A DNA stretch of 64,000 nucleotides from a virus. Taxonomy: Duplodnaviria > Caudoviricetes. The stretch spans positions 119,721-183,720 of the IMG/VR virus record IMGVR_UViG_3300020112_000604, one strand, 5' to 3'. The position numbers and the translations under genes were made by a program. A model generated the notes under the pieces. The model saw nothing but the letters and a program-made list of their open reading frames with translations, searched no databases and was not told the DNA's origin. This document shows positions 2,655-64,000 of this stretch, piece after piece; the first letter of the stretch is position 1; each line of letters begins with the position of its first letter.

Positions 2655-2767
2655 TAAGAGTGCTAGAATCTTCTCTAAATCTCTGTTATTTCTCCAAATT
2701 TGTGTTCGGTTTCATGTAATTCCTTTCCTATGGTCCCAGTACGATTATATCGTACTGGGAATCTTTT
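2655..2767 (+). ncRNA. Candidate sRNA (~110 nt) with anti-SD/anti-start tract
   Basis: Near-consensus promoter AACA-N7-TA at 2644; plus-strand terminator 2734-2767; no plus-strand ORF; contains TTTCATGTAATTCCTTTCC. Confidence 0.45.
2734..2767 (+). terminator. Intrinsic terminator (plus strand)
   Basis: TCCCAGTACGAT/ATCGTACTGGGA stem plus ATCTTTT. Confidence 0.75.
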
Positions 2768-2770
2768 GCG

Positions 2771-2806
2771 AAAAAGACCCCGTAGGCTATATTGGCCTAC
2801 GGGTCT
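2771..2806 (-). terminator. Intrinsic terminator, GTAGG/CCTAC family
   Basis: CCCGTAGGC/GCCTACGGG stem with T-run on the minus strand, after 2830-3666. Confidence 0.75.
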
Positions 2807-2829
2807 CTAATAGATGCTGTTATTTGTTT

Positions 2830-3666
2830 TTAGTTACCACTCAGGATGTCTTCACGATGTTCGTTAAAGTCCATCACTGATGAAAGAGACATGGCTCTAT
2901 CACCAACTCGCTCTTTGATAGATAAAAGTTCTTCTTTGGTCTTTTTATCCAAGAATGTGAGATAAACAAAACCTACGGTTTCACTGTTTTCGTTATAAAC
3001 GGATACTGCAACTGCTGCATTAAATCCGTCTCGTTTTAACCTGGCTATTGCCATAGGGAATGCATATTCCAATGACACCAAGTCATCAATAACGAATCCA
3101 CCGTCTTCGTTGATTGACGTAGATGAAAGTTCATCCATTACTGATAGTGGAACGCCTTGCTGTTCCGCGATTCTAGGAGTAACCTGTTTTTCTCTTCTTA
3201 CAATTTCCTGGATACATGTATACTTATAGAACGGTAATCCATGTGATGAATGTGTACCGTTGTGGAATACATAAACTGATATTCTGTCTGCATCAAAATC
3301 ATCTTTAGCTTTTAATAGCATTGGACGTATAGCTTTAGATATCTTATTGTAATTCGAAAGAATATCTACATTCTTTCGAGTCTCATCTTTGAATACTTTG
3401 GCAGTTTCCGCATGGACAATTTCTTCGATAAAGTGTTTAAGCTCTTCTCTAGTCATTGGTTTTTCACCATTGTCTCTAGTATCAGAAGTCTTCGAAAGCT
3501 CGTCGAGCTTACTCCACAATCTGTCCTGCGTTTTAGTATTCTGTTTTACAAACCAAAATATACCAAATATGAGTACTACACAACAAATAGTACCAAATCC
3601 ATAACGTTCAAATACTTCGGCAAAACCTCCTAGTTCGTCGGGTGACATCATTTTTTCTATCAGCAT
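2830..3666 (-). CDS. Putative holin-like membrane protein with C-terminal GAF-like domain
   Basis: Single N-terminal TM, coiled segment, then ADRISVYVFHNG...AVSVYN...VGFVYL GAF-like pattern; architecture like T4 holin T. Confidence 0.45.
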   Translation of the reverse strand: MLIEKMMSPDELGGFAEVFERYGFGTICCVVLIFGIFWFVKQNTKTQDRLWSKLDELSKTSDTRDNGEKPMTREELKHFIEEIVHAETAKVFKDETRKNVDILSNYNKISKAIRPMLLKAKDDFDADRISVYVFHNGTHSSHGLPFYKYTCIQEIVRREKQVTPRIAEQQGVPLSVMDELSSTSINEDGGFVIDDLVSLEYAFPMAIARLKRDGFNAAVAVSVYNENSETVGFVYLTFLDKKTKEELLSIKERVGDRAMSLSSVMDFNEHREDILSGN

Positions 3667-26940: not shown

Positions 26941-28710
26941 TTAGAGGTCTTCTGGTTCTGGTCCGTAAGATGTGTAGTTCACATCTGAAAGGATGAACTG
27001 GTTTGATGTGAAGATGAGCATAAGAATCTTTGAAATTGTCTTAAGGATGCAGATATCTGTTTCGATAGATGACAGCACCTTTCCGTCGAAGTCCTTAGTT
27101 CTGAGGTTGAATGGGCAACCCTTTTCAAGTGATTCGTTTGCGAGTTCTTCAGCCTTTGCATCGTCGCCGCTTACGGATGTGATGTAAAGTGCCTTTGTAA
27201 GTTCACGATAAGCAGTCTTAATGATACCGAGAATCTTCTGTGTTTCTTCATCATCAGAAGTTCTTTCTGTAACTGCACGGAATGCTTCGAAGTTAGCACC
27301 GAAACCTACACCGTACTGTGATGCTGAACGAGCGTTGAGTACTGCGTCATCAAGTGCGTCGAGTTCCATGTCTCTATCCTGTGCAGAGATACCGCCGTAT
27401 GAAATCTGAACCATACGTCCCTTAAGGCCGTTAATTCTCTTTTTATAATTGAAAGTATCTGTGAGTGGAGCACCGTCCTTAGACATTTCCGCATACTTAG
27501 CTTCGAGTTCACGGAGCTTGTTTGAGTATATATCTGTAGGTGTTCCATCTTCGTTGTACATGCATGCAGGTGAGTATGCCTTGCATGATGTGAATGTAGC
27601 TTCAACAGCTGCAGCATGACCTGCAAATGATCTGAAGTTAGCCTGTGTAACAGCCTTACCTGTCTTTTCCATGTACTTCTTGTTTTCGGGGTCAAGGTAC
27701 TTGCAGATGTGCTTACCGCCTGACATTGTGCAGAGGTCATCCATAGATGGCTTATCAACTGAAGTTACGTTTGGAATAAGGAGGAATGGAGGCTTCTGGT
27801 CGTAAGGGCAAGCAGCCATCATTTCTTCTACCTGTGCAAGGTATGCTGAATAGTCCGGTGTGAAGTGTGGGCAGATAACTACTGTAGGTGTGTACTTACG
27901 TTCAGCAAGAAGCTTTTCGCTAGGTGTCTTACCCGCAGCAATAAGTCTGTCGCATTCTGTCATTGCAGCGATTGGCTTAGCAATGTTTTCGTTGAATATA
28001 ATTTCGAATGTGTGAAGCTGTTCAGCATTGTCAATCGGATCATCAAAGAAGTAGATTTCCGGATTTTTGATTATGCATGTGTTTCCAGGTCCGTTTACGT
28101 ATACGCCGCTCTTGAAGCCTTCGAATATCATCATACCGTCAAAGTCAATGATTTCTGTTTTGCTGTCTGAAGAAGCGACTGTTTCGATAAGTACATCAAG
28201 ACCGTACTTGTCGTACTGATCCATGATAAGGTTAACGAGATCTTCTCTGCCGTTTGTTGAGATATAGCAGATGTCTCTGATGAGTTCCGGTGTAGCATCC
28301 TTGGCATTCTTCTTGATGTCTTCGCAAAGCATGTCGATTACTTCACCGAATTTTGTCATGATGCCCTGACGGTCGTATTCACGATCAGCCGGATACATCT
28401 TGTTGAGCTCGTTGAAGAGCAGATAAGAAAGCATTACGATTGAAGTTGTAGCATCGCCGACTACCTTAGCCTGCTGCTGACACTGTGAATCGATATCTGC
28501 TTTGATTGAGTTTTCAATTTCGCCGCTGAAATTAATCTCTCTTACTACAGAGAGACCATCCTTTGTGAACTTCGGGAACATGTTTGGCTTGTAAATGTTT
28601 GTAACAGAGCCATTCGGTCCGAATGTTCTTCTGAGTGCTTTGTACATCTCCTTGAGAGTTGCGAGCTGTACACTTCTTAATACTACTGGTCCTACAATAT
28701 TTGTTTTCAT
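26941..28710 (-). CDS. groEL: Phage GroEL-like chaperonin
   Basis: TFGPNG, TKDG, GDATTS, DDAV..A and GVGFG motifs; no GroES adjacent. Confidence 0.9.
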   Translation of the reverse strand: MKTNIVGPVVLRSVQLATLKEMYKALRRTFGPNGSVTNIYKPNMFPKFTKDGLSVVREINFSGEIENSIKADIDSQCQQQAKVVGDATTSIVMLSYLLFNELNKMYPADREYDRQGIMTKFGEVIDMLCEDIKKNAKDATPELIRDICYISTNGREDLVNLIMDQYDKYGLDVLIETVASSDSKTEIIDFDGMMIFEGFKSGVYVNGPGNTCIIKNPEIYFFDDPIDNAEQLHTFEIIFNENIAKPIAAMTECDRLIAAGKTPSEKLLAERKYTPTVVICPHFTPDYSAYLAQVEEMMAACPYDQKPPFLLIPNVTSVDKPSMDDLCTMSGGKHICKYLDPENKKYMEKTGKAVTQANFRSFAGHAAAVEATFTSCKAYSPACMYNEDGTPTDIYSNKLRELEAKYAEMSKDGAPLTDTFNYKKRINGLKGRMVQISYGGISAQDRDMELDALDDAVLNARSASQYGVGFGANFEAFRAVTERTSDDEETQKILGIIKTAYRELTKALYITSVSGDDAKAEELANESLEKGCPFNLRTKDFDGKVLSSIETDICILKTISKILMLIFTSNQFILSDVNYTSYGPEPEDL

Positions 28711-33351: not shown

Positions 33352-35088
33352 TTAAGCCTTGAGGTCATCTGCTGTGATAACCTTCCATGAATGATTTCTG
33401 AAATCTGCTTCTACACTATCCTGATTCATGATATTGATATTAGCAAAGATTTCGTCTACTGATGCCTTTGGATGATCGAGAATCCACTGCTGTGAATCAC
33501 TATTGCATCCCGCATTGATGTAGCAGCGTGTGTAAAGGATGATTGCATCCTCATCTGTAACGCCGGCTTCCTGAGCTTTCTTGATTGCTCGTGAGATTAC
33601 ATTACAATCGAATCTCCACTGTGTATCAACAGCCCAATCCTGAATAAGAAGTTCTGATATGAATCTTTCATCATCAGTGCCTTCTACAAGATAGAAGTTT
33701 TCCCAATAGTCATCAAGTTCTGGATCTGAGAATCCAGTATACTTAGCGAGTATTGAATTGAATCCTTCAGGGTTCTCGTCTCTTATCTGTTCGATAAGTT
33801 CTCTTCCGAGTTCTCCTCTAGCCTGAATTGCACCGAGTGAGCATGCACCGTTGTCATTCAGGTTTATAGTGTTGGCCTTTCCATAGGCGCCGATTTCAAA
33901 CCATTTGTTAAATGAGAGACACTTCTGAATAAGTTCCATCGATGGTTCAGAAACGGATCCGGTGTTGGATCCGGCTGAACTGGGTGTAACGTTTTCAGGT
34001 TTTACAGGTCCAACCATTTCTTCTGGTTCTGGTTCTGTGTTGACATATACCATTCCATATTCGTTAGGAATGTCTATGCCGATTTCAGGGTCGAGACAAT
34101 TTACCGGACAACCGTTGTCTCTGATTTCATAGTGACAGTGGTCACCTGTTGATGAACCGGTAGTTCCTTCGTAGCCAATCTTCTGTCCCGCTTCTACGTA
34201 ATCGCCTTCTGATACGTAGATTTCAGACATATGACCATAGTAGTACCAGTAGCCGTTATCTCCAACGATCTTTACATACTGACCGAATCCCTGATATGGG
34301 TCGTAAGGGTTTTCCCAGTCAGCATATTCTACATATCCTGGATGTGTTGCAAAGATTGTGTAGTCGCCCTGTGAGCACAGGTCAACTCCCCAATGGTAGA
34401 TATTGTCTCCTCTGTATTCACCATAGATTGATGATACATAGAAGTCGCAATTGAAAGGCATCTGAGTCTTGCACTCTCTTGAGTCAGTTGCTTTGCCGCC
34501 GCCATCATTAGATGTCTCTAACGTAACTGTATAGATTGCATCTTCTGACAGGACATATTCTTTACCCTTAGTATCTATAAATACCATATCCGAAATACTG
34601 AGGCTTGTACCTGTGCACCATGTAAATTCAAGTGTCATGGTATTGTCATCATCGACCCACATGTTAAGTGGTGATGACTTGGTTCCGATTGAATATGTAG
34701 TCCTTACGGACTGTTTACCTGCGACTTCTTTGTAATCTTTGCTGTCTACAGGAACACAATCGCAGAATGTTCTTGTAGCTTCTTCAGAGTTCTTATCTTC
34801 ATATGTAAGGATACCCTGTGTACAGAATGCCTTATATTCAGGAAGTTCTGATGTGTTGACATCACAAGTGAACTTGATGCTTGCGATATCGATAGGTTTC
34901 GGATTTGCTGTTGGACATATTCCGCCAGTTGCGAAGAATGCCTCGTCAAGATCGATTACTAATGGATAGTATCCAATTTCTCCATCCATGTATTCACTAC
35001 TTCCGTTGTAGTTACATACGTTGGATATCATTGTTAATCCCGTGATAGCTGCTGTTACCACACTAATTCTGTTCTTTGTTACTGCCAT
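33352..35088 (-). CDS. Secreted M23 peptidase with C-terminal lysozyme-like domain
   Basis: Signal-like N-terminus; HWGVD, YGHM and HCHYE M23 motifs; FEIG...NDNGACSLGAIQ glycosidase-like motif. Confidence 0.85.
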   Translation of the reverse strand: MAVTKNRISVVTAAITGLTMISNVCNYNGSSEYMDGEIGYYPLVIDLDEAFFATGGICPTANPKPIDIASIKFTCDVNTSELPEYKAFCTQGILTYEDKNSEEATRTFCDCVPVDSKDYKEVAGKQSVRTTYSIGTKSSPLNMWVDDDNTMTLEFTWCTGTSLSISDMVFIDTKGKEYVLSEDAIYTVTLETSNDGGGKATDSRECKTQMPFNCDFYVSSIYGEYRGDNIYHWGVDLCSQGDYTIFATHPGYVEYADWENPYDPYQGFGQYVKIVGDNGYWYYYGHMSEIYVSEGDYVEAGQKIGYEGTTGSSTGDHCHYEIRDNGCPVNCLDPEIGIDIPNEYGMVYVNTEPEPEEMVGPVKPENVTPSSAGSNTGSVSEPSMELIQKCLSFNKWFEIGAYGKANTINLNDNGACSLGAIQARGELGRELIEQIRDENPEGFNSILAKYTGFSDPELDDYWENFYLVEGTDDERFISELLIQDWAVDTQWRFDCNVISRAIKKAQEAGVTDEDAIILYTRCYINAGCNSDSQQWILDHPKASVDEIFANINIMNQDSVEADFRNHSWKVITADDLKA

Positions 35089-37738: not shown

Positions 37739-37755
37739 AATTGGAGGTGGGCATT

Positions 37756-39963
37756 ATGATGCAATTGCAGACACAGATGGCCGTTGACCCTCGGTTCGCA
37801 CAATGCGCTACCTGGACAGCGGACTATTCTACTAGAAATAAATCTTTCCTAGCTATGCACTTCTACTTAAAGAAGAAGGGTCTGAAGAACAACAACTTCA
37901 TGCTTATGCTTTTTGACCAGGGACTGATCGGAGTAGATCCGTTTGATCCGAATCTTTCCCCGCAGTTTAAAGCTAGAATCCTTATAGAGGTTCAGCGTAA
38001 CTTCTGGTACTTTATACGAGAAGTAGTTAGAATGATCAGCGCCGGTGGTGCGCCGTGTTCATTCCGTCTTGACCCAGCCAATATGGCTATGTCATACTTA
38101 TTACAGTATTCAATCAATGTATACGAAGAGATCCCTCGTCAGTGCGGTAAAACACTTCTCGTTGCTGCTTGGTATCTATGGATTTATAACTTCCGTTCAC
38201 GTTCATCGAATATAGTATTCCTGAACAAGAAGATGGAAACGACAAAGGAAAACTTGGAACGTCTTAAGACTCTGAGAGACAACCTTCCAGACTATCTTAA
38301 GATGGATGCGGTATACGACGCTCAGGGTAAGCCATTAAAGGCTGCCAGCACCGTAGAATATATCAAGAATCCTATCAATAAGAATATGATTAAGTGTTTA
38401 CCATCAGCTACATCTGATGGTGCAGCTTCAAACCTGCTTAGAGGTAAATCTCTTTCAGGTCTGTGGATCGATGAAGCGGCCTTCATTCCACATCTTAGAA
38501 CTATTCTTATCAACGGTATGCCGGCCTTACGTACATCTATGGACCAGTGTGCTATGAACGGTGCACCACACGGTATCATATACACATCGACACCGGGTTC
38601 TCTTAAGGACGAAAACGCTGCATACTTCAACGACTTACGTCTTAGTATGACACCATTCCAGGAAGCATGGTATGAACTTCCAGCAGAAGAGCTCTTCAAT
38701 ATCATCAAATGCAATACGAAGAGTTCATTCGTTTACGTTAAGTTTGAATACCAGCAGCTCGGTAAATCTGAACAGTGGTTCAAGGATAACTGTAAGGAAA
38801 TGTCTTATGACTATGCAGGTATCCGTCGTGAAATTCTGCTTATGTGGGAAGCTGCTTCGGATAACTGTCCATTCAGCAAGGAACAGCTCGATATCGTTCA
38901 GCAGTATACAAGAACTCCTACTAAACAGATGCTCGTATTTAACCGATATGCTATCAACTGTTACAAGGAATTCAAGTCTCAGTTTGAATTATACAACTCA
39001 CAGTTCGTAGTAGGTTGTGACGTTGCTGCAGGTACACAGCGAGATGCTTCTACAATGGTAGTACTTGATGCAAGAACAAGTGAACTCGTACTTGAATTCA
39101 ACTGTAACTACATCAGCACCATAGAGTTTGCTAAGGTTATCATAGAAGTCGTCTCGCATTGGCTTCCTATGGAACGAACGTTGGTTACTGTCGAACGAAA
39201 CGGCGTCGGGCATGGTGTATTGGCGAAACTTATTAACTCGCCGATTAAACGATGTCTATACTATGAAATCAAAGAAAAGGTTGTTGAAGAACGTGGTGAT
39301 GCTGGAAGAATGCGTAAGTTCTCTGAAATGGTTAAGTCATATGGTCTATACAACGTTAACGAAGTTCGTTACGACTTAATGGACTTACTTGCTAACAGAA
39401 TCGAAAACTATCCGCATCTTATCACTTCTAAGATAATGCTGGACGAAATTCGCGGACTTGAACGTAAGAAGGGTGACAGAATAGAGCACTCTAACGTATC
39501 ACACGACGATACATTATTCGGATATCTCTTAGCGTTATATCCTCTCTACTATGGTAAGAAGGTTGCTGAACGTTGGCACTTACCACCGGCTAGATTTAAG
39601 ACCCTCGACCCAGAAGGCGAAGATATGATGCTTGATGATGAAGAGACCGCAACAGAGCGGTTCTGTGTTGCTCAAAAACTTGCCGAGGACGCAACTCTCG
39701 ATAAGTTCGAGCATCTTAATCTCAAAGAATCAATCGAATACGTTAAGGGTCCTAAGAGTATGTCAATCGCCGAATACACCGCTCAGCAGCGAGCAGCTGA
39801 TGAAGAAGATATTCGTCGTCAAGTTTCTACTAAGCTTGGACGACAAGCTTATCAGAATACATATCATATATCAGACGATTGTATGACTGCGCAGTATGGC
39901 GATGTAAACAATCAGTGCATTCCTATGGACATATTCACCGACTTCTATAAGTATAACGACTAA
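37756..39963 (+). CDS. terL: Terminase large subunit
   Basis: Walker A PRQCGKT, Walker B LWIDEAAF, STP, nuclease GCDVA...ERNG...HDD; GGAGGTG SD supports ATG 37756. Confidence 0.92.
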   Translation: MMQLQTQMAVDPRFAQCATWTADYSTRNKSFLAMHFYLKKKGLKNNNFMLMLFDQGLIGVDPFDPNLSPQFKARILIEVQRNFWYFIREVVRMISAGGAPCSFRLDPANMAMSYLLQYSINVYEEIPRQCGKTLLVAAWYLWIYNFRSRSSNIVFLNKKMETTKENLERLKTLRDNLPDYLKMDAVYDAQGKPLKAASTVEYIKNPINKNMIKCLPSATSDGAASNLLRGKSLSGLWIDEAAFIPHLRTILINGMPALRTSMDQCAMNGAPHGIIYTSTPGSLKDENAAYFNDLRLSMTPFQEAWYELPAEELFNIIKCNTKSSFVYVKFEYQQLGKSEQWFKDNCKEMSYDYAGIRREILLMWEAASDNCPFSKEQLDIVQQYTRTPTKQMLVFNRYAINCYKEFKSQFELYNSQFVVGCDVAAGTQRDASTMVVLDARTSELVLEFNCNYISTIEFAKVIIEVVSHWLPMERTLVTVERNGVGHGVLAKLINSPIKRCLYYEIKEKVVEERGDAGRMRKFSEMVKSYGLYNVNEVRYDLMDLLANRIENYPHLITSKIMLDEIRGLERKKGDRIEHSNVSHDDTLFGYLLALYPLYYGKKVAERWHLPPARFKTLDPEGEDMMLDDEETATERFCVAQKLAEDATLDKFEHLNLKESIEYVKGPKSMSIAEYTAQQRAADEEDIRRQVSTKLGRQAYQNTYHISDDCMTAQYGDVNNQCIPMDIFTDFYKYND

Positions 39964-40005: not shown

Positions 40006-41583
40006 TTAGTCTAACTGTTCGAACACGTGGTCGTCATTAACGATGACATGGTGTTCGCAAATCCTGATGATTTCTGGACGGTGGGTGATTACAAGTAAAG
40101 TATTCTTGCAATTCTTATCCAGAAGATTTACAGCAATCTTTTCCGTTGCATCATCGAGGTTTGATGTAGGCTCATCGAGAATGATGAGACAATCATCGTC
40201 GCATTCGCGCATCTTAAGGATTGTACGAACTATATTTATCCTCTGCTTCTGTCCAGACGATACTTTGCTGCCTCTTTCGCCCATTATGGTGTCGAGACCA
40301 TTGTCAAGTTCGTAATGAACCCAGTTTCCAAGACCGAGTTCTTCAAGAAGCTCTTCAATCTCTTCGTCAGAGTGTTCAACGCCAAGGTTAATGTTTTCTC
40401 TGAGTGAAGTGTCAAGAAGTTCTGATTCCTGATATACATAGAATGTCTTAACCGGATTGAAATCGGATGCTTCTACTGTACCCACAATAGCATTTGCTAA
40501 TGTCGACTTACCTAAACCAGATGAGCCAGTAATTACGGTTCTTGAACCATAATTAAAGTCAAGCTTAGGAGCCTTGAAGATTGTCTTAGTTCCATCTTCC
40601 TTTGTATAACCAAAGTGGAAGTTTCTAAGATGTAACCCCTTCTTTATAGACTTCTTAACTTTTGTATCTTTGTCCTTGAGACATTCGAGATGCTCAAGAT
40701 TTTCATTGAGAGTAGCAACTATATCTACCGAGTCGAGTATGAAGTTTACACTACCCATGAATGATGACACTGATGTAAGTAAGATTGTACCAAGTTCAAG
40801 TCTGTTTTCTTTTGGTATCATCATTACTCCGAAGAGTGTCGGAATTAAGAATACGAGATATGAAATCTGGTATCCTATGTGTCGACAAAGCTTTGATGAA
40901 TACGGCATATAACCGTCCTGAACTTCGTTAAGCTTCTTAGCGGCATAAGCTTCCTTACCGAGGAATCTAAGAGTCTTGCTATTGAGGAATAAGTCTACCT
41001 TGGTGCCTCTGATAGCAGCTCCTCTTTTGCTGCATTCCGTGTATCTTATCTGACCGCATAAAATGCCAATTGCAGACGATAATATGATTGCTGCTATAGG
41101 GATCGTCATGATGACTCCGCAGTGAGCTTTAATCATCTTATACAGCACCGCTAAAAATGGAGAAAATACTGAAGGAAGCTTGATGGCATTAACCACGATG
41201 TCCTTCTTGGACTGTGACACGGCTTCTATATATGACGTAATCGTGCCCGAGTTCATGCCAGTAAGCTTAGCTGAATAATATTCCTGCATCATTTTGCGGT
41301 CAATACTATTCTGGTACTTAAGGCCGAAAGTTCTTGTCCAGTTGTGTGAAAATGATGCAACCAGGCATAGAACGATTTCAATTGCAATTTCCACTGCAAT
41401 CCATTTGAATAAACTGTCCGAGTTTAACGAGCATATGAGTTTAGCAAATGCCATAGTCACACACACGCCAAGGAGTGTTTCCATGAGTCTTGCAATACCC
41501 ACCAATGTGCCTTGTCTTCCGAGAGATAATGCTCCGAACCATCTACTCTCTTTGGTTGTGTGATTAATCTTAAATGTTTTCAT
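40006..41583 (-). CDS. ABC exporter (fused TMD plus NBD), start moved to 41583
   Basis: About six TM helices; GSSGLGKST, SSGQKQR, ILDEPT and ITHR motifs. Confidence 0.92.
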   Translation of the reverse strand: MKTFKINHTTKESRWFGALSLGRQGTLVGIARLMETLLGVCVTMAFAKLICSLNSDSLFKWIAVEIAIEIVLCLVASFSHNWTRTFGLKYQNSIDRKMMQEYYSAKLTGMNSGTITSYIEAVSQSKKDIVVNAIKLPSVFSPFLAVLYKMIKAHCGVIMTIPIAAIILSSAIGILCGQIRYTECSKRGAAIRGTKVDLFLNSKTLRFLGKEAYAAKKLNEVQDGYMPYSSKLCRHIGYQISYLVFLIPTLFGVMMIPKENRLELGTILLTSVSSFMGSVNFILDSVDIVATLNENLEHLECLKDKDTKVKKSIKKGLHLRNFHFGYTKEDGTKTIFKAPKLDFNYGSRTVITGSSGLGKSTLANAIVGTVEASDFNPVKTFYVYQESELLDTSLRENINLGVEHSDEEIEELLEELGLGNWVHYELDNGLDTIMGERGSKVSSGQKQRINIVRTILKMRECDDDCLIILDEPTSNLDDATEKIAVNLLDKNCKNTLLVITHRPEIIRICEHHVIVNDDHVFEQLD

Positions 41584-41586
41584 ATT

Positions 41587-41660
41587 GTACCTCCTAGTAC
41601 TAGTGCCTTGCATCATAGGCTATTGTAATGTATAAGGACGATGCATTCTTTGCCCTTATC
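41587..41660 (-). promoter_or_regulatory. Structured 5' leader (kissing-loop motif), copy 2
   Basis: GATAAGGGC AAAGAA TGCATC GTCCTTAT...GCCT ATGATGCA AGGC...GTACT AGGA GGTAC. Confidence 0.65.
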
Positions 41661-43869: not shown

Positions 43870-45027
43870 TCAGAATGCAGGATTGTAGTAAACGCCGCAT
43901 GGACGTCCGTATCTTCCTGTTCCTGTAAGTCTCATGAGTCTGAGTTCTTCCTTGATTGAAACTGTTTCCACTCTGATAACGAATGGAAGCTTGTCTGAGC
44001 TTCTCCATACATTCCAGAATGAATATCCGCCGCCTGCAGATGCAACAACTGATGGGTCAGCCGGTGCAAGATACTGGCACTTGAAGATGTACTTGTCAGG
44101 TGTGATTTCCTTGAGAAGTGACATAAGCTTGCTGATGAAGATAGCGATGTCAATCTTAACTGATACAACGAATGCTCCGTTTGTAAGGCAGTTGTTACCC
44201 TGAGGCTGACCTACATTACAAGCGTTTGTTTCGATGTTTCTCCAGTCAGGTTCCATGCCGTTTGGAGTATTGATGAATACATCCTTGCTGATGAAAGGTG
44301 TGAGAATCTTTCTTGTCAGCTTGTTAAGCTTAAGATTTGCCTTCTGTCTTCCGAGGCTTCTCTGCATTGAAGCGAGTTCGCCGAGTTCAGATGAAGCTGA
44401 AGAATTTGTATCGAGCTCATCTTCGATTGTTACGACGTTCTTGATCTTGCCATCAGTAGCTTCAGCTGCTGACATGCAGAACTGAAGTTCCATTGACACG
44501 AGAGTCTTAAGTTCTGTCTTGCCTGTTCTTGGGTCCGGAACGTGTACGTCGATTGCGTTTACACGTGTGCCGATGAAGTCTGCGAAAATCTGTGAGAATA
44601 ATGAGTTTGAGCATCTTTCGATTTCGACTGATGTAACGTTACCTGCTACACTGTGAATCGGAATAAGTTCGCGGTCATTGTCATCGATTTCGATTTCAGC
44701 CTTGGAATCATCCTTTTCTTCCTTAGCTTCTTCTTTCTTGTCTTCCTTCTTTTCAGCCGCTTTCTTCTTGTCGTCTGCCTTGATACCGAAGATATCCTGA
44801 CATTCGTCCTTTACCTTTTCGACAGCTGAAGGTGAAATCTTCTTGAGAAGATTCTTGATGTCGACCTGTTCGAGGTCTTCTGATTTTGTTTCTGACTGCA
44901 CGTAATCAAGTGATCCACGTGCTGTTGCTGCAGCATAGGCTCTGTCAAAGTTTTCCTGCTGCTGACATGCGTCAAAGAATGCTGTGCTGTTGTTTACTGG
45001 TGCTCCGTAAAATCCGTTGTTCATCAT
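43870..45027 (-). CDS. Hypothetical early protein
   Basis: 385 aa; strong SD; biased codon usage. Confidence 0.75.
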   Translation of the reverse strand: MMNNGFYGAPVNNSTAFFDACQQQENFDRAYAAATARGSLDYVQSETKSEDLEQVDIKNLLKKISPSAVEKVKDECQDIFGIKADDKKKAAEKKEDKKEEAKEEKDDSKAEIEIDDNDRELIPIHSVAGNVTSVEIERCSNSLFSQIFADFIGTRVNAIDVHVPDPRTGKTELKTLVSMELQFCMSAAEATDGKIKNVVTIEDELDTNSSASSELGELASMQRSLGRQKANLKLNKLTRKILTPFISKDVFINTPNGMEPDWRNIETNACNVGQPQGNNCLTNGAFVVSVKIDIAIFISKLMSLLKEITPDKYIFKCQYLAPADPSVVASAGGGYSFWNVWRSSDKLPFVIRVETVSIKEELRLMRLTGTGRYGRPCGVYYNPAF

Positions 45028-45089
45028 GATCGATGTCCTCCTTAAAATTATAAAACTTTGGTGATATAATTATCACCTCTTACACACTA

Positions 45090-45115
45090 ATAATATACAA
45101 CTGAAATTTTGACTC
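45090..45115 (-). promoter_or_regulatory. Early-type promoter
   Basis: GTCAAAATTTCAGTTGTATATTAT. Confidence 0.7.
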
Positions 45116-45130
45116 TAGTTTTATATTAGG

Positions 45131-46093
45131 TCAAACTCCGGCGTATGTGAATGATGAGTCTTCAGACTTTCTTTCCTTAGGATTCTTTCGTCCTATAGAT
45201 TTGTAAAGGAAGTCCAATTCGTCTTGGGTTTCTTTGTCTCCGTTTACGTAGTTTACTTTGTACTGTTCGTAACCGGATGTATATGGTACTACATAAATCT
45301 CACCTCTATCTCCAAGTCGTACCAAGAAGTATTCTTTCTTCTGAATCTTTTCAGGGATGATAGTGATATCTAACTTAACACCGTAAGCTGAGATTACTGT
45401 ATTAGTTATAAACTTCTCTATCTCTCTGTAAAATCTTACAGACTTTGGCCCGCCTTTCTCATAAAGAGCTTTTGTTACCGGGTCAATTCTTGTATCATAA
45501 AGCTGAATCGCATCCATGTCTTTGTCAATAGCAGTGAGTATCAAATCGATGAACTCATGTATCTTGACTGGCACGTCTGGTTCAGTCTTTATAGGGAATT
45601 TAGGATGACGCTTTGCTGTATTACATTCATGAGCATGTAATATGTCGTAGCGTATCGGTGTCTTCCAAAGAAGACGTCTGATTGTTTCGAATGTCTCCCA
45701 TGGATACAGTTTCATTTCGAATACAGTATCTCCAGGATTCAAATCTTCTATAGCATCTTCATCTAAGAAGTCTGCTACATAGAATGGTTCAAACAATCCT
45801 TTGTTTGTGTCGACTACCGGAGCCATTGCTACAATGTATCCATTGTGCTCTTCTCCAAAGTCGTCTGCTTTACTTCCTATATAGATTACTCTGAGAGTAT
45901 ACTTAGGAATAATACAACTCAGTTCACTATTGGAAGCTAAGTCTGAATCAAGTATATGGCCTACAACATCTGTTTCCATATTCATCAGATATACTGTAGG
46001 ATTCTTTTCGTTTGATAAAGTAATATGTCTATATACTGATATCTCGTTCTGAGATTCAGACTTATAGAATACTTCTCCAAATTTGGTTCTCAT
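45131..46093 (-). CDS. Hypothetical protein
   Basis: 320 aa; AAAGGA SD. Confidence 0.7.
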   Translation of the reverse strand: MRTKFGEVFYKSESQNEISVYRHITLSNEKNPTVYLMNMETDVVGHILDSDLASNSELSCIIPKYTLRVIYIGSKADDFGEEHNGYIVAMAPVVDTNKGLFEPFYVADFLDEDAIEDLNPGDTVFEMKLYPWETFETIRRLLWKTPIRYDILHAHECNTAKRHPKFPIKTEPDVPVKIHEFIDLILTAIDKDMDAIQLYDTRIDPVTKALYEKGGPKSVRFYREIEKFITNTVISAYGVKLDITIIPEKIQKKEYFLVRLGDRGEIYVVPYTSGYEQYKVNYVNGDKETQDELDFLYKSIGRKNPKERKSEDSSFTYAGV

Positions 46094-46120
46094 AGAAGAA
46101 TCATTCCTTTCTTTGTTTTG

Positions 46121-46145
46121 TATTTAAACGTTCCTTTATGTGTAA
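46121..46145 (-). promoter_or_regulatory. Promoter TTACACA-N6-AACG-N6-TA
   Basis: TTACACA TAAAGG AACG TTTAAA TA. Confidence 0.55.
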
Positions 46146-46250
46146 GTATGTACAGATTGACCTCTGTTCTCTTATAATATAAGGAAATATGTAAATAGAA
46201 GACGTAGCCTTAGCGTAGTCTTCTATGGGTATATCCAATCTCGGATGAAA

Positions 46251-46282
46251 TAAAAGCCCCGTAGGCAACCAAAGGCCTACGG
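46251..46282 (-). terminator. Terminator, GTAGG/CCTAC family
   Basis: CCGTAGGC/GCCTACGG then GGCTTTT on the minus strand. Confidence 0.65.
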
Positions 46283-46406
46283 ATAAATTTGGAGTTTTGG
46301 AATCATTTCGTTTTATACAGAAATCATAAGACCAGTTAGCTTAGTGTGACTTACACTAAGGTGTAGTCACACATAGACTAATTCTAGTCTTATTTTCGTA
46401 TAAATT
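46251..46406 (-). ncRNA. Candidate structured ncRNA (~155 nt; long rod hairpin plus terminator)
   Basis: Promoter AACA-TTTTCG-TA (46406-46417); nested inverted repeats 46312-46404; terminator 46251-46282; no ORF. Confidence 0.55.
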
Positions 46407-46496
46407 ACGAAAATGTTATGAAGACTGTTGTAAACTACTTTTTCCAAGAGTGACTACCCTTAGTGTATTAAAAGGCAATATTATGCTTATAAACGG

Positions 46497-46508
46497 AACA
46501 TAGTATTA
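46497..46508 (+). promoter_or_regulatory. Late-type promoter AACA-N6-TA
   Basis: AACATAGTATTA. Confidence 0.6.
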
Positions 46509-46583
46509 ATACTACTCCACTCATCTGCCTTGAGTAGTGTTAGTATGATTAATCATATTAATATTTAAAAGGAGGACATAATT

Positions 46584-46976
46584 ATGGCTAAGACTTATGA
46601 TTTCAGTACATTCCACGGTGCAATGTACAACAAGAATTTTGCTCCTACAAGCAGAAATATCCTTTTCGAAGGAAAGGACATAATCAATATCGAAGGTGAC
46701 ACAGTTTCAGAACCTATCGGCGTTGGCGCATCAGACCAGCTCTACGTTCAGGGTAACGGTTCAGCTCCTTCATACACAGTAGAAGGAAGACTTACAGATG
46801 CTTCACCTTGGACAGCTCTTACACTCACAAAACTCGGTGACAGATCAGAATCAACAGACGCAGTTTCAGACGGCGCTGTATACGTTGCTGACGTACACTA
46901 TCTTTTCCAGATCAGAATTGCTAACGCAGGTACAGATCCTGTAATGGCTAAGTTCGAAAACTTCGGCATCAAGTAA
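46584..46976 (+). CDS. Probable virion decoration/fibre-associated beta protein
   Basis: Late promoter; strong SD; biased codons. Confidence 0.6.
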   Translation: MAKTYDFSTFHGAMYNKNFAPTSRNILFEGKDIINIEGDTVSEPIGVGASDQLYVQGNGSAPSYTVEGRLTDASPWTALTLTKLGDRSESTDAVSDGAVYVADVHYLFQIRIANAGTDPVMAKFENFGIK

Positions 46977-46999
46977 TCACCGTAAAGGAGGAATCTGTT

Positions 47000-49900
47000 A
47001 TGGCTTTAAATAGCAACACAATGGAATTCTTCCGTAGACTTGAAAACAACGGCACTGGTAGTAGTAAACTTGGAAAGATTATTACTACCAGCAAAACCGT
47101 TGGTTCTATAGCTAGCGGATCAATTCTCTCATCAAACATTACTTTCCCAGCTTTCATAGATTCACTCTTCGGCAGCGGTGATGATATGGCTATGGACGTT
47201 TCACCAGTAAGACTTGAAGAAAGCTCTGGCGAATACATCGTAGATCCTACAATCGTTTCACACCGTGAAGTTGACGAAGACGGAAATCCGGTTGAATCAA
47301 ACTTCAAGATCAAACTCGAAGTTACACCAGGTTCAGATCTTATCGAATGCATCAATATTCAGAAGATCATCACAACAACAGACCCAGAAACTGGCGATTC
47401 AGTTTCTAAGAAAATTACTGTTTCAACAATCAAAACAGCTCAGGCTAGTGCACCAAGTGAGACTGGCGTTAACGACTTCATTATCACAGTACCATGTACT
47501 AAGGAAGACGCTGCTGCTGACGAGGTTAAGCTTCGTGTTGTTGCATACGAATACATTATCGCTCCAGGCGGTCCTGCAAAGCCAACTCCACTTCCAGACG
47601 AAAAGCCTTCAAACGGCCAGCCATCAAAGGTTGTTGAAATCGGCGTGACATTTGGCGCGCTTCAACTCACAAAAGCCAAGCTTACATCAACTCAGTCATC
47701 GCCGGTAACTAATGTAGTTACTGGTACTTCTATTGACTTCCCACTCACTGGTGAAGTTGTAATTGGTGAAGACGGCTTAACAATGGACGGCATCGTATCA
47801 CTCGAACTCTTCGAAAACGGCGGTTCATCACCTGTGGCTACAGCTACAGATCCTGCATCCGGCGGTACTGTTACATACACAGCTACAATCACAGCTGATG
47901 CTTCTGCTCCGTATAGAAAGGTTTCCGTACCTTATACACTCGTAGCTACATGGGATGACGGTACAACAAAGGAAGCTACTTTAATTCCTACAGTTGTTGC
48001 TAAGGAAGTATCATCTTTCGCTAAGGCAACAATAACTGTTCCAAACCCAACTCGTACAAACGTAATTTCCGGCACATCTGAAACTTTCAATATCACAGGT
48101 TCCGTTGAACTTGGTGACGATGGAAGAACACGCGATACACTCGAATCTATAAAGATTTTAGTTGACGACACAGAAGTTGCTTCTTCAGCTTCACCAGCTA
48201 CAGATGATGCTACATATGCATTAAGCATTGAAGCAAGCGCTACAGCTCCATCAAGAACCGTAACTAAGACAGTTAAGGTTGTTGCAACATGGGCAGATGG
48301 CTATTCATCTTCTTCATCAGACGTTGTTTGTAAGGTTGTTGCTAAGGAAATTTCTTCATTCACAACTGTTGAAACAGCTATCGACAATGCAACTCGTACA
48401 GCAAAGATCGGTGTTGCCGAAACATTTGCTATCACAGGCACAGTATTCATTGGCGATGACGGATATAAGAAGTCTGAACTCACATCATTAAAGATTGTTG
48501 ACGACACAGGTGCAGAAATCGCAACTGCAACAGATCCAACAACAGGTGCAGTAGCTGTTAATGTTCCAATCACAGCTGTAGCTCCAATTGGAACAACTGT
48601 AACAAAGAAATTCAAGACAATTGCTGAATGGGGTACAGACACTAAGGAATCAACACTTGCTACAGCTTCAGTTAAGTCAGTTTCAACTGATGCATCTAAA
48701 GCTGGCGTAACAGTTTCACCAACTTCACCACAGTCAAATATTACACATGGTACAGCGGTTGATTATACTGTAACAAGTGCTACATATTTCGGCGATGATG
48801 CTAAGACATACGCTTCAATTGCTAAGATTGAAATTCTTGATGGCTCAACAGTCCTTGCATCTGCTACTTCACCAGCTTCATCATCAGATGAACCATCTGC
48901 AACAGTAACACTTACAGCAGACACAAGAGCAGCTGGCCGAAAAGTTTCAAAGACAGTAACTGTTAAAGTTACTTGGAACGACGGTACTACAGCTTCAACA
49001 AAGAACACAACTCTTGAAGTTGTTGCAAAGGCTCCTACAACTGAAACTAAGACTACTATCACATCATCAACAACATCACCAGCAACTGCAGCTGCAGGCG
49101 TAGCTGTTTCATTCCCACTGACTGGTACTATCGCATTTGGTGATGATGGATATGAACTTTCTGAAGTTACTTCATTCAAACTCTATGAAGGATCTACAGA
49201 AATAGCTTCAGCAACTGCTCCATTTACAACAACACTTGAAAAGGCTGATTACAAGATCACTGCAGGAAGTACTGTTGGTGGAACTGTAACAAAGACAGTT
49301 AAGGCTGTTGCTATTATCGGCGGTAAGACATTTACATCAACAGCAGTTTCACTTGCTGTTAATACAGCTGACGTAACAAAGGTTAACGTTACAAGTACAA
49401 AGACAACACCACAGAGCAATATCGAAACTGGCTCAATCGTAAGCTTCCCTGTAACAGGTAAGATTGCTATCGGCGGAGACGGAAAGACTCTTGTAGATCT
49501 TACATCTCTCGAATTATTTGTTGATGATGTTAAGGATACATCAGCATCTGCAGATCTTTCAACTGGTACAATCACATCTAATGTGGATATCACAGCAGAT
49601 TACGGCGCAACAAGTCATAAGGTTGCAAAGACTGTTAAGGCTGTTGCTACATGGACTGACGCAACAACAACAGAAGGAACTAAGACATTTGAAGTTGTTG
49701 CTAAGGCTCCTGAAAAGAAGATATACACTGGATTCATGATGTTCCCATACTCAGGTTGTATCACATATGACGGCACAAAGGCTGTTCCTATGGAAGATAT
49801 GACTGACGCAAAGTGGCCAACACCTGAAGCTATTGCTGCGGATATAGACGATTCTGGCACAGGACATTCAACATTTATGCCATTATTAATATCAAATTCT

Positions 49901-61057: not shown

Positions 61058-64000
61058 TCACTGTACAATAACGCTAGTACCACTATATGTGTAATTAGTT
61101 ATTGATGGTGATAATGTTTTGTTTACATATACTGTCGGTACATGTGGACAGTTACCAATTATCTTATTTATATATGCAGTAGAAACGCTTGGTGCTTCTA
61201 TATAAACAGTGCATGAACTACTGTTGGCAGTGTTAAACATATTATACATCGCATTTAATTTGTTTGAATATACCGTAAACTCTGTAATGTTATTGCAGTT
61301 ACGATATGCATCGCTTGCATTAACTACATTCGGACCAATCATACCAGAAGTTAGATTTGCACAATTATTATATGCATAATTCATCGTAGTTACATTAGGA
61401 CCGCATACACCGGCACCGGTTAGATTTCTACAATTACTATATGCATTCTGCATGTTGGTTACATTATATCCACATACCGGATTGCCAGTAAGACTGTAAC
61501 AATTGTTATATGCGTAGGCCATATTTATTACATTATCGCCACATACAGGATTGCCAGTGAGATTTGAACAATTGCAATATGCGTAGGCCATATTTTCTAC
61601 TTTGTCACCACATACTGGATTACCGGTGAGGTTATTACAATTCTCATATGTGCAACCCATATTAGTTACACTATCACCACATACCGGATTACCAGTAAGA
61701 CTGTAACAATTGCGATATGTATTACACATAGTAGTTACATTATTTCCGCATACAGGATTGCCAGTGATACCGCAACAGTTATAATATGTGCCCCACATGT
61801 CAGTTACCTTATCACTACATACCGGCATGCCTGTAAGCTTAGAGCAGTTATAATATGTAGCATGCATGTCAGTTACATCATCACCACATACTGGATTACC
61901 CGTGATATTATTACATTCCTCATATGTTTCATACATATTCGTTACGTTAGGACCACATACCGGACTACCTGTAAGGTTATTACAACGGCTGTATGTATAA
62001 GCCATATTAGTTACTTTATCTCCACACACCGGATTTCCGGTCATGTTATAACAAGAACGATATGTGTTAGACATATCCTCTACATTAGGACCGCATACAG
62101 GTCTACCAGTGAGGTTGTAGCAATACATATATGTGTTACTCATGTTTATTACTTTATCTCCGCATGCTGGGTTGCCAGTTAAGTTAGCGCACTGGTAGTA
62201 TGTCTGATACATATTTTCTACATTAGGACCGCATACTGGTTCTCCAGCAAAATTTCTGCTGTAACAGTAATAATATGTATTACTCATATCGGTTACTTTA
62301 TCCCCGCATACTGGACCATCTGATAAATTATAGCAGTAAGTATATGTATTAGCCATATTAGTTACATTAGGACCACATACAGGACTACCTATGATATTAC
62401 CACACCCACAGAATGCACTACTCATATTAGTTTCATTAGGTATACATATAGGAATCATTACTGGAGCTGTAATAAATTTAGTATTCGCATTTACCATGGT
62501 GTCGATACCAGGAAAAGCATAATTGCTTCTAAACTCACGAGCTTCATCTGTAGACCAGTCTCTAATATTAATGCATGATCTGTAGTATACATTATTTAAA
62601 GCAAACATCTCTTCGACATTTGTGCTCGCATAGTATGGAAGATTACCGTCTGATGAAAAACGATATTCTTTTCCTCGGCACCAGCCACTTCTGATAACTA
62701 CCGGTGGATATACATTATCACATACTACACCGTTGCCATATGCTAAATAATGATAATCTAAGAAATTGTTTATTACAGAATCGTCTGGAATGTTATTCTT
62801 ATTTTCGAAAACTATCCTATGTGCAGCATAGCTTCCAAGCTGTGGTATACCAGTTTTATTAAAGAATATGCTAGGATCGGTGATTACGAGTGTTGTGTCT
62901 GTATTAGTGAACGCTCCATAATAGTTGTCTAACTTAATCAAGTCACGATCATATATATTTCCACAAACGTTTGTACACTCGTAAAATGCATACGCAATAT
63001 CACGTACATTAGGTCCAATGTTTATTTCCGTAAGATTTGGACAATTATAGTATGTACTATACATATTGGTTACATTAGGACCACATGCTCCCCTTTTAAG
63101 AGACTTACAGTTAGCATATGTGTATTGCATGTTAACGACATTGTTACCGCATGCTGCGTTTTCGAGACTAAAACAGTTGTAATATGCGTGAGTGAAATCT
63201 ACTACGTTATCTCCACATGCTGCGTTTCCAGTGATCTTTATGCAATTATCAAATGCACTGTACATATTAACTACATTAGGACCACATGCTGCTTTATTTA
63301 AATTCTGACAGTTATAATATGTGTAACCCATATTAACAACATTATTACCGCAGACACCGGTTCCTGTTAGCTTTTCACATCCGTAATATGTATCTATCAT
63401 ATCAGTTACTTTATCGCCACATGCTGCGTGTCCAGTCATATTGTTACAATAGTAATATGTGTAATACATATTCATTACATTAGGCCCACATGCTGCATTT
63501 CCGGAAAGATTATTACAATAATAATATGCGTAATCCATAATGGTTACGTTATCTCCACATACTGCATCCCCGGTAAGTTTATTACAACAATAATATGTGT
63601 AATACATATTGTTTACATTGTCTCCGCATACAGGACTACCAGTAAGATTATTGCAATACTGATATGCACAACTCATATCTATTACATTGTTCCCACATAC
63701 CGGAGAACCAGTGATGTTGTAACACTGATGATATGCACCGTTCATATTTACTACTTTATCGCCGCATACTGGTACACCAGTAAGCTTATTACAACCGGAA
63801 TAAATGCCGCTCATATTTGTTACATTAGGTCCACATACCGGATTACCAATGATATTATAACAATACTGATATGCACCAGCCATATTTACTACATTATTTC
63901 CACATGCAGGATTGCCATTAAGATTATAGCAACCAGCGTACGCGAAGCTCATATCTTTTACATTAGGTCCGCATGCCGGATCTCCAGTTATATTGCCACA
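61058..64000 (-). CDS. Partial (5' end outside window) Cys-rich BspA/TpLRR-like repeat protein
   Basis: Frame stays open to 64000; at least 30 copies of a 23-aa repeat MxxxYxxCxNLTGxPVCGxxVxN in two blocks. Confidence 0.85.
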   Translation of the reverse strand, partial: CGNITGDPACGPNVKDMSFAYAGCYNLNGNPACGNNVVNMAGAYQYCYNIIGNPVCGPNVTNMSGIYSGCNKLTGVPVCGDKVVNMNGAYHQCYNITGSPVCGNNVIDMSCAYQYCNNLTGSPVCGDNVNNMYYTYYCCNKLTGDAVCGDNVTIMDYAYYYCNNLSGNAACGPNVMNMYYTYYYCNNMTGHAACGDKVTDMIDTYYGCEKLTGTGVCGNNVVNMGYTYYNCQNLNKAACGPNVVNMYSAFDNCIKITGNAACGDNVVDFTHAYYNCFSLENAACGNNVVNMQYTYANCKSLKRGACGPNVTNMYSTYYNCPNLTEINIGPNVRDIAYAFYECTNVCGNIYDRDLIKLDNYYGAFTNTDTTLVITDPSIFFNKTGIPQLGSYAAHRIVFENKNNIPDDSVINNFLDYHYLAYGNGVVCDNVYPPVVIRSGWCRGKEYRFSSDGNLPYYASTNVEEMFALNNVYYRSCINIRDWSTDEAREFRSNYAFPGIDTMVNANTKFITAPVMIPICIPNETNMSSAFCGCGNIIGSPVCGPNVTNMANTYTYCYNLSDGPVCGDKVTDMSNTYYYCYSRNFAGEPVCGPNVENMYQTYYQCANLTGNPACGDKVINMSNTYMYCYNLTGRPVCGPNVEDMSNTYRSCYNMTGNPVCGDKVTNMAYTYSRCNNLTGSPVCGPNVTNMYETYEECNNITGNPVCGDDVTDMHATYYNCSKLTGMPVCSDKVTDMWGTYYNCCGITGNPVCGNNVTTMCNTYRNCYSLTGNPVCGDSVTNMGCTYENCNNLTGNPVCGDKVENMAYAYCNCSNLTGNPVCGDNVINMAYAYNNCYSLTGNPVCGYNVTNMQNAYSNCRNLTGAGVCGPNVTTMNYAYNNCANLTSGMIGPNVVNASDAYRNCNNITEFTVYSNKLNAMYNMFNTANSSSCTVYIEAPSVSTAYINKIIGNCPHVPTVYVNKTLSPSITNYTYSGTSVIVQ

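Follow-up and report, generated by a model that had tools for sequence, protein, structure and literature searches.

The 490-bp gap at 46094-46583 of a 64,000-nt stretch of viral DNA (the window, C1:119721-183720 of the 183,720-bp virus record IMGVR_UViG_3300020112_000604, the completeness of which is estimated at ~75%) carries on its minus strand what is probably, with a probability that we would put at roughly 0.55, one member of a family of small RNAs, predicted to be ~150-160 nt long, each driven by a phage late promoter and bounded by a terminator. The element is carried by a jumbo phage of the gut that is uncultured and, as judged by comparison of RNA polymerase subunits, a remote relative of AR9, PBS1 and phiR1-37; the public runs that contain this phage are chiefly animal gut and faecal metagenomes. 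In the scheme that we propose, the non-virion multisubunit RNA polymerase of the phage itself would read an AR9-type late promoter, starting at 46406 and stopping near 46250, to produce an RNA of which the extreme 5' end is closed by a 97-nt rod, followed by a 25-33 nt single-stranded A-rich tail and an intrinsic terminator. A structured phage RNA had already been proposed here in a reading of the letters alone (hereafter the sequence-only reading), and this core idea is supported, if indirectly, by the promoter and a sense-facing terminator in four of four copies of the unit, the rod placed at +3 and its pairing kept by compensation, unlike two additions to it, a shared seed and a 6S-like function, which are not supported.

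The argument begins with the promoter. Late promoters of AR9 read AACA-(6N)-TA/G, with the start site at the last base, and early promoters of the same phage are AT-rich elements of the TATATTAT type (PMC5312081). The sequence AACATTTTCGTA at 46417-46406, which is exactly where the sequence-only reading had located AACA-TTTTCG-TA, satisfies the late motif AACA-(6N)-T(A/G) and is the same in all four copies. When the 120 nt upstream of the 162 genes based on open reading frames (ORFs) in this phage are considered, AACA-N6-T[AG] occurs 38 times in sense and nine times in antisense for 12.6 expected, a threefold enrichment, and the corresponding figures for a complete relative (G001, 37% polymerase identity) are 57, 13 and 13. 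The phage appears to use this late motif. It also encodes a beta'-like RNA polymerase fragment (PF00623 match in a 535-aa (amino acid) ORF), which has as its nearest database relatives phiR1-37, AR9, PBS1 and kin (28-33% identity), while a beta-like subunit (PF00562) and a tubulin-family protein are encoded on a sister-strain contig (L009) that carries the fourth copy, c4. The likeness to AR9 thus lies in an identical motif and spacing, in its enrichment upstream of genes in the phage and its relative, and in beta'- and beta-like subunits closest to those of phiR1-37, AR9 and PBS1; the differences are the limited identity of the polymerase subunit, a start that is predicted and a cassette promoter overlapped by an inverted repeat.

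The promoter motif is embedded in a 32-nt block (block 2 in Table 1), which also contains the predicted start site and the initial 20 nt of the predicted RNA. From the motif we infer a start at 46406, which would leave the rod's first pair 2 nt from the 5' end and, with a 3' end predicted near 46250, yield an RNA of ~157 nt. The perfect 9-bp inverted repeat that spans this start is identical in all copies, and the other late-type promoters listed in this genome are without a comparable one. It is reasonably read as a candidate sequence-specific operator or extrudable hairpin, which suggests that the promoter itself is under operator control, and it would account for the invariance of these 32 nt in units whose terminators have diverged beyond recognition.

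Next comes the rod, in which the nested helices and the CTTA loop of the sequence-only reading are all found where they had been claimed. The minus strand at 46240-46420 folds with -58.2 kcal/mol versus -30.3 +/- 3.3 for 200 shuffles (z -8.5), none of which is as good. RNAalifold on five sequences defines 39 consensus pairs, and 93.8% of the cells of this consensus structure are paired, versus 32-36% once partners are slid by 1-3 columns. Double-sided changes affect seven pairs, compared to 3.0 +/- 1.1 in column shuffles (1/500 as good), and 10 cells, compared to 3.7 in shuffles (0/500); in slid controls the figure is 0-1, and the covariation score of the rod is above that of every shuffle. 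A telling example is GTGTGACT/AGTCACAC in c1 and c2, which is GTATGACT/AGTCATAC in c3 and GTACGACT/AGTCGTAC in c4. Pairing is therefore kept by compensatory changes among the paralogs, which is suggestive of selection for it. Conservation is uneven along the unit: no position varies in the first 20 nt at the 5' end or in much of the rod's 3' arm, the interior changes but stays paired, and the linker drifts.

The unit is not unique. The record contains three copies, c1 at C1:166138(-), c2 at C1:51176(+) and c3 at C1:106259(+), the last two oriented like the minus strand of the window, and an exact-pattern scan of metagenome contigs uncovered in a near-identical strain three orthologous loci and a fourth paralog (c4, on contig L009, Ga0255343_1008816), which is presumably located in the record's missing quarter. 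That the genes of the c4 operon are missing from the 184-kb record fits its 75% completeness. Common to all four copies are block 1, block 2, an equally long rod at +3, a 25-33 nt linker, a terminator, a spacer and a second hairpin. The whole unit covers ~330-400 nt, in which the late promoter is followed by the 97-nt rod, then the terminator and lastly the second hairpin. A comparison of the two strains shows 0 changes in the c1 RNA (175 nt) versus ~12 in its flanks.

At the other end of the RNA, the orphan minus-facing terminator of the sequence-only reading is the sole terminator-like call of our scan in the region (stem 46283-46258, tail GCTTTTATTT). At the equivalent place in c1-c4, the scan finds a sense-strand terminator in four of four copies and an antisense-strand one in none, although the c4 tail is weak (TAATTTCTCT). 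Their stems belong to three unrelated lineages (c1; c2; c3/c4), with those of c3 and c4 being homologous and showing a compensated change (CCTGA/TCAGG versus CTTGA/TCAAG). Since the genes upstream of c2 and c3 end in terminators of their own, the unit is insulated on both sides. Elsewhere in the window, the terminator at 2771-2810(-), which follows the gene at 2830-3666(-), closely resembles the c1 terminator in its stem (CCCGTAGGCC...GCCTACGGGG, then a T-run) but not in its loop, a likeness that suggests that terminator hairpins have been copied within this genome.

Table 1. Coordinates of the unit and of its surroundings (positions in the window unless a contig is named).
Feature	Position	Strand	Basis or remark
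Divergent late promoter motif AACATAGTATTA	46497..46508	+	predicted for gene 46584-46976
Block 1, AAAAGTAGTTTACAAC	46427..46442	-	copy alignments; AAAAGTArTwwACwAC in 4/4 copies
Block 2, TAACATTTTCGTAATTTATACGAAAATAAGAC, 32 nt	46387..46418	-	identical across four paralogs and strain orthologs
AR9-type late promoter motif AACA-TTTTCG-TA	46406..46417	-	predicted start is the final A, 46406
Perfect 9-bp inverted repeat ATTTTCGTA-ATTTA-TACGAAAAT	46392..46414		read from the sequence; spans the predicted start
97-nt rod hairpin, ~40 pairs, apical loop CTTA 46360-46357	46310..46406	-	folds; consensus pairs
Single-stranded A-rich linker with CTCCAAATTT (46285-46294)	46284..46309	-	weakly conserved (shared AUxCC ... 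AAAU)
Intrinsic terminator T1, 9-bp GC-rich stem CCGTAGGCC/GCCTACGG(G), tail GCTTTTATTT	46248..46283	-	terminator scan
Second hairpin ATAGAAGAC-TAC-GC-TAAG-GC-TAC-GTCTTCTAT	46195..46226	-	nhmmer: found only beside three cassettes
Early-promoter-like TTATATTAT	46174..46182	-	inferred against phage early consensus TTGTATAyTATTATAGTGATAAGGAAC
Gene downstream of c1, co-oriented, 320-aa protein	45131..46093	-	Pfam and PHROG: zero matches; no recognised family
Gene downstream of c2, 405-aa protein			
Genes downstream of c3: 70-aa Cys-rich protein, then thymidylate-kinase-like gene			
Genes downstream of c4: 241-aa protein, tubulin/FtsZ-family (PhuZ-like?), 434-aa protein, polymerase beta-like	L009:483-7671	-	PF00562 (beta-like)

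As for the mode of action, we tentatively favour, at somewhat short of an even chance if the small-RNA family is granted, an abundant protein-binding RNA, decoy or scaffold, in which the conserved double-stranded rod would be the active part and the several gene copies would supply the dose. Action via a seed in the linker is improbable, since the linker is the least conserved part of the unit and the base of the rod is invariant. Bacterial 6S RNA and adenovirus VA RNA are rod-shaped protein-binding RNAs of this kind, to which the predicted RNA bears a resemblance in shape only (~150-180 nt, mostly a single long and imperfect duplex that the 5' end closes), and its abundance is likely to matter as well, given the multiple gene copies. 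A more specific role as a 6S-like mimic for RNA polymerase, as once proposed, is not supported, because 6S RNA (RF00013) has a large central bubble that mimics an open promoter, whereas the rod has none (its internal loops and bulges are only 1-3 nt) and finds no 6S match in Rfam at E <= 10. More generally, the Rfam search gave no match at the gathering score and noise alone at E <= 10 (snoR31, LhrC, a microRNA), and no transfer RNA or transfer-messenger RNA is present. A retron, a Y RNA, a mimic of a CRISPR repeat and a type III antitoxin were dropped since their defining neighbours or repeats and an Rfam match are lacking.

Several observations weigh against a small RNA made from this strand, or against the way in which it would act. 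The plus strand folds nearly as well as the minus strand (-57.9 kcal/mol, z -6.7), and the strand choice was not helped by the G-U pair that had been said to favour the minus strand, which proved not to be a general argument. In single folds, the sense strand is better by 3 kcal/mol in c1, the two strands are equal in c2 and the antisense strand is 5-6 kcal/mol better in c3 and c4, while wobble cells in the consensus (10 G-U versus 6 A-C) are equivocal. The direction of the transcript therefore rests on the promoter motif and the one-sided T-runs. In addition, the DNA palindrome runs into the promoter (ATTTTCG with CGAAAAT), in a part that an RNA starting at 46406 could not use. Covariation was assessed on four independent sequences from one phage species, which gives it low power, and the same signal would arise from a DNA hairpin. 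The case for protein binding is made by the conservation pattern and the copy number alone. Finally, within 45837-46838 RNA-library contigs offer no coverage but 34 nt that match block 2 exactly, which belong to a c4-like copy and lie in a 206-nt low-depth contig that reaches 130 nt upstream of the promoter and is silent on the start site. Over 44000-49000, the four RNA-library runs partly cover the flanking genes, in assembled low-depth contigs that are uninformative on either transcription or silence.

The explanation that competes best, although we consider it unlikely, is that the unit acts in cis, as a structured 5' leader with an attenuator, where transcription would mostly stop at T1 to leave a by-product (a "5'UTR-derived sRNA", i.e. 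a small RNA from a 5' untranslated region (UTR)), and read-through would join the rod, as a stabiliser of the 5' end, together with the second hairpin to the transcript of the downstream operon, for late expression of genes that also possess a promoter of their own. Its strength lies in the surroundings of the copies. All four are co-oriented with the next gene, the start codon of which follows the predicted start site at a distance of 292-349 nt. The copies also remain homologous for 45-110 nt upstream and >200 nt downstream of the palindrome. Upstream, c2-c4 share a stretch that resembles a decayed early promoter/leader (GTATACTTTTGTTAAGAACAAGGGG versus GTATAyTATTATAGTGATAAGGAACAAG). Downstream, the homology of c2 and c4 goes on via the second hairpin and the next promoter-like motif to the ribosome-binding site AAGGAGGAATG, which makes the repeated unit a 5' regulatory module that is more than a small-RNA gene. 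Since the four downstream operons are unrelated (in that of c4, the 241-aa and 434-aa proteins belong to no recognised family) and the homology is so extended, the cassette behaves as a portable 5' module, within which, on the favoured reading as well, the small-RNA unit is embedded. The position of the rod, 2 nt from the 5' end, is in keeping with a leader too, as a hairpin with such near-5'-end geometry protects mRNAs of Firmicutes against 5' decay. There are also precedents, because continuously expressed genes of AR9 have early as well as late promoters (PMC5312081), and eight of the 11 small RNAs of phage 201phi2-1 stem from premature termination in 5' UTRs (PMC11512511).

Three observations count against a leader. 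The sequence of T1 varies while the 3' arm of the rod is conserved, so there is no conserved antiterminator pairing. Beyond the second hairpin, promoter-like motifs are present in front of the downstream genes themselves (AACATTTTAGTA in c2, TTATATTAT in c1, TATAAT in c3), and because such a motif precedes the gene at 45131-46093, this gene does not necessarily need the cassette promoter. Moreover, the orthologous genes of G001 manage without such a leader. The small-RNA family and the cis-acting leader are not mutually exclusive.

Less probable still, in our estimate, is that the cassette works at the DNA level as a repeated palindrome (operators, extruded hairpins, recombination hot spots or origins) and that any RNA is incidental. 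This would fit the near-equal folding of both strands, a palindrome that reaches into the promoter and past the predicted RNA, and the perfect 9-bp inverted repeat over the start in block 2. It would also fit the second hairpin. This further inverted repeat, already spotted by the sequence-only reading and confirmed by us, begins 21 nt past T1 in c1 and, after a spacer, takes in all four copies the shared form ATAGGAC-TAC-GCTAAGGC-TAC-GTCCTAT. Its core GACTACGCTAAGGCTACGTC is approximately the reverse complement of the rod tip (0/2000 shuffles as good), which makes the hairpin an inverted partial copy of that tip, so that a near-palindromic site occurs twice, ~150-200 bp apart. The absence of the cassette from the orthologous loci of relatives is as expected for an inserted or mobile unit, and repeated promoter-terminator cassettes that mediate shuffling are found in T4-type phages (PMC2839356, PMC4122927).

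Against a DNA element, the positions that vary in the rod, as well as those in the second hairpin's outer stem (ATAGGAC/GTCCTAT, ATATGAC/GTCATAT, ATAGAAGAC/GTCTTCTAT), keep their pairing, which a double-stranded binding site would not need, and asymmetric T-tracts face the sense direction in four of four copies. Homology well past the palindrome on both sides argues against a simple miniature inverted-repeat transposable element (MITE), and a MITE-like repeat was rejected on this ground, with no target-site duplication seen at the palindrome ends. As for an origin, which had been offered as an alternative together with a DNA hairpin, cumulative GC skew has a peak near 50-52 kb, close to c2, that follows gene orientation, and nothing at c3 or c1, leaving two of the three copies without an inflection; the DNA-level alternative is kept at the low weight just given.

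Two further possibilities concern what the RNA might do. There is a slim chance that it is a double-stranded RNA mimic that would titrate a duplex-recognising protein of the host or the phage (such as a nuclease or an immune sensor), or that read-through RNAs form loop-loop multimers as the packaging RNA of phi29 does. The latter draws on the complementarity of the second-hairpin loop UAAG to the rod loop CUUA. In c2 and c3, the stretch around the rod loop (GCCUUAGC) pairs without mismatch with GCUAAGGC in the second hairpin, which would enter the RNA solely through terminator read-through. This complementarity does not covary, since CCUAUAG is found in c4 and two second-hairpin loops of the sister strain differ (GCUAGGGC, GCUUAGGC; GCTAGGGC, GCTTAGGC) with no change in the rod loops. 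It is better explained by common descent, through inverted duplication of the rod tip, and a contact between the two loops is at best a slim possibility.

A small RNA that pairs in trans with the ribosome-binding regions of mRNAs, through its linker or apical loop, is the slimmest of the prospects that we retain. It would include the seed of the sequence-only reading, the linker 10-mer CTCCAAATTT, and a CUUA/UAAG contact. The 10-mer is indeed present at 46285-46294(-) and 2692-2701(+), as reported, and a third time at 46075-46084(+), which makes three sites in the window for 0.17 expected. At this last site, codons 4-7 of the downstream gene are exactly complementary to the 10-mer of the c1 linker, and pairing of the c1 linker with the start region of that gene reaches -12.4 kcal/mol, matched by 4% of shuffles. 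Each linker also has a short C-rich patch amid A/U (CUCC, UCCU, UCCCU, CCUCU), and the loop complements in c2 and c3 are exact. On the other hand, the 10-mer is missing from the paralogs, where its counterparts are AACCAAATAC (c2), AACGAAATAA (c3) and CTCTGAAATA (c4), the linker (25-33 nt) is the least conserved part of the unit, and the 2692-2701 site lies in a context unrelated to the cassette. No pairing between linker and downstream gene was found in c2-c4 (shuffle fractions 0.22-0.89), and a scan of 162 translation-start regions revealed no common target for the linkers. Loop complementarity, as seen above, neither covaries nor requires more than an inverted copy of the rod tip. A seed role for CTCCAAATTT is therefore not supported.

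Searches for the small-RNA family outside this phage were made at several levels. A blastn search with 45900-46800 gave zero matches in 50,697 phage records, and in IMG/VR no relatives of the two flanking proteins and no exact match to a 20-mer of the second hairpin were found. A 23-mer and a 21-mer of block 2 recovered the same phage species only (L006, L008-L011) plus a chance match (L007), while two matches in 185,579 prokaryote genomes were dismissed as coincidences within coding sequence (e.g. ...RFRNLYEN...). Seven further IMG/VR matches to a 16-mer of the rod's 3' arm included none that fits the covariance model. Run on four relatives (37% polymerase identity), the covariance model R1 gave a best score of 23.5 bits, a spurious match within a 363-aa ORF, and G001 has no cassette at the orthologous loci. 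So far, these searches confine the family to one phage species, in two assemblies. Incidentally, a sliding-window scan of minimum free energy for analogous rods in the record (G000) and in G001 was too noisy, and G001 (IMGVR_UViG_3300035498_000530) has at 70.7-79.4 kb and 161.2 kb at least eight copies of a ~150-nt repeat between tandem minus-strand genes. These were rejected as rods, since each looks like a bidirectional terminator with an AT-rich promoter/leader, an ordinary regulatory repeat.

How does this cassette relate to known systems? In the jumbo phages 201phi2-1 and phiKZ, short promoter-to-terminator units that yield small RNAs have been documented (PMC11512511). Like the cassette, they belong to jumbo phages with multisubunit RNA polymerases and have a promoter for the phage polymerase, a terminator at most 250 nt further on and a position upstream of, and co-oriented with, a gene. 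They differ in having no similarity to the rod cassette by sequence or covariance model, and in lacking its four paralogs per genome, 97-nt rod and inverted rod-tip copy; moreover, their RNAs were seen by RNA sequencing, whereas the rod RNA is predicted from sequence. The rod-RNA family is thus new, but short promoter-to-terminator RNAs of jumbo phages are an already known kind, and what stands out here is the four copies and the inverted copy of the tip. The PeSL cassettes of T4-type phages (PMC2839356, PMC4122927) are likewise repeated intergenic promoter/terminator cassettes of large myoviruses, found in front of unrelated genes and plausible substrates for shuffling, but they are short, consist of a terminator stem-loop and, after it, an early promoter, are repeated around variable ORFs and encode no structured RNA. 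Membership was rejected, since a cassette of ~330-400 nt in the order given above shares with them the general idea alone. The Listeria LhrC RNAs (RF00616) resemble the unit in having several sibling copies and single-stranded C-rich patches before the terminator; they differ in that their C-rich motifs are conserved, and membership was rejected here as well (19.3 bits versus a gathering score of 110, E 1.6).

The interest of such a family is several-fold. RNA sequencing has only recently brought small RNAs of jumbo phages to light and, to our knowledge, none of them has an established function. A four-copy family with an invariant 5' block, a compensated rod and a promoter-to-terminator layout is an unusually well-defined candidate for functional study, and with it the late promoter logic of AR9 (AACA-N6-TA) reaches gut phages that are uncultured and have a polymerase only ~30% identical. 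If true, (i) a rod acting as a protein decoy would reveal an RNA-based layer in phage takeover or counter-defence, (ii) a double-stranded RNA mimic or loop-loop multimers would be a novel RNA-based function in a jumbo phage and (iii) a portable leader only would show the spread of a regulatory module ahead of unrelated operons within one phage genome.

Turning to the surroundings, the gap separates the divergent genes 45131-46093(-) and 46584-46976(+), and its extent is as first described, except that it is not quite free of ORFs, as a mechanical list holds two, of 55 aa and 31 aa, and no others. The 55-aa one (46101-46268(-), started by TTG) shares sequence with both the terminator tail and the second hairpin, lacks an equivalent in the other copies of the cassette and is probably not a gene. 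In the 5' UTR of the divergent gene 46584-46976(+), a 7-bp hairpin (ACTACTC...GAGTAGT, 46511-46538) comes right after the predicted late start, and a perfect 12-bp palindrome AGTATTAATACT overlaps its promoter. Elsewhere in the window, Pfam identifies a Cpn60/TCP-1-like chaperonin (26941-28710(-)), an M23 peptidase domain protein (33352-35088(-)), an ABC-type ATPase (40006-41616(-)) and a BspA-type leucine-rich-repeat protein (61058-63952(-)), and the large terminase subunit is encoded at 37741-39963(+).

A last observation concerns early transcription. A strongly conserved early-type promoter/leader, GGAAAGTC-N12-TTCAGTTGTATAyTATTATAGTGATAAGGAAC, which resembles the AR9 early consensus TATATTAT, occurs at least eight times in the phage genome, with sites at G000 C1:13578, 20640, 49535, 100871(-), 120423 (window 703) and 161394(-) (window 41674), and decayed versions of it lie upstream of c2-c4 and downstream of c1.

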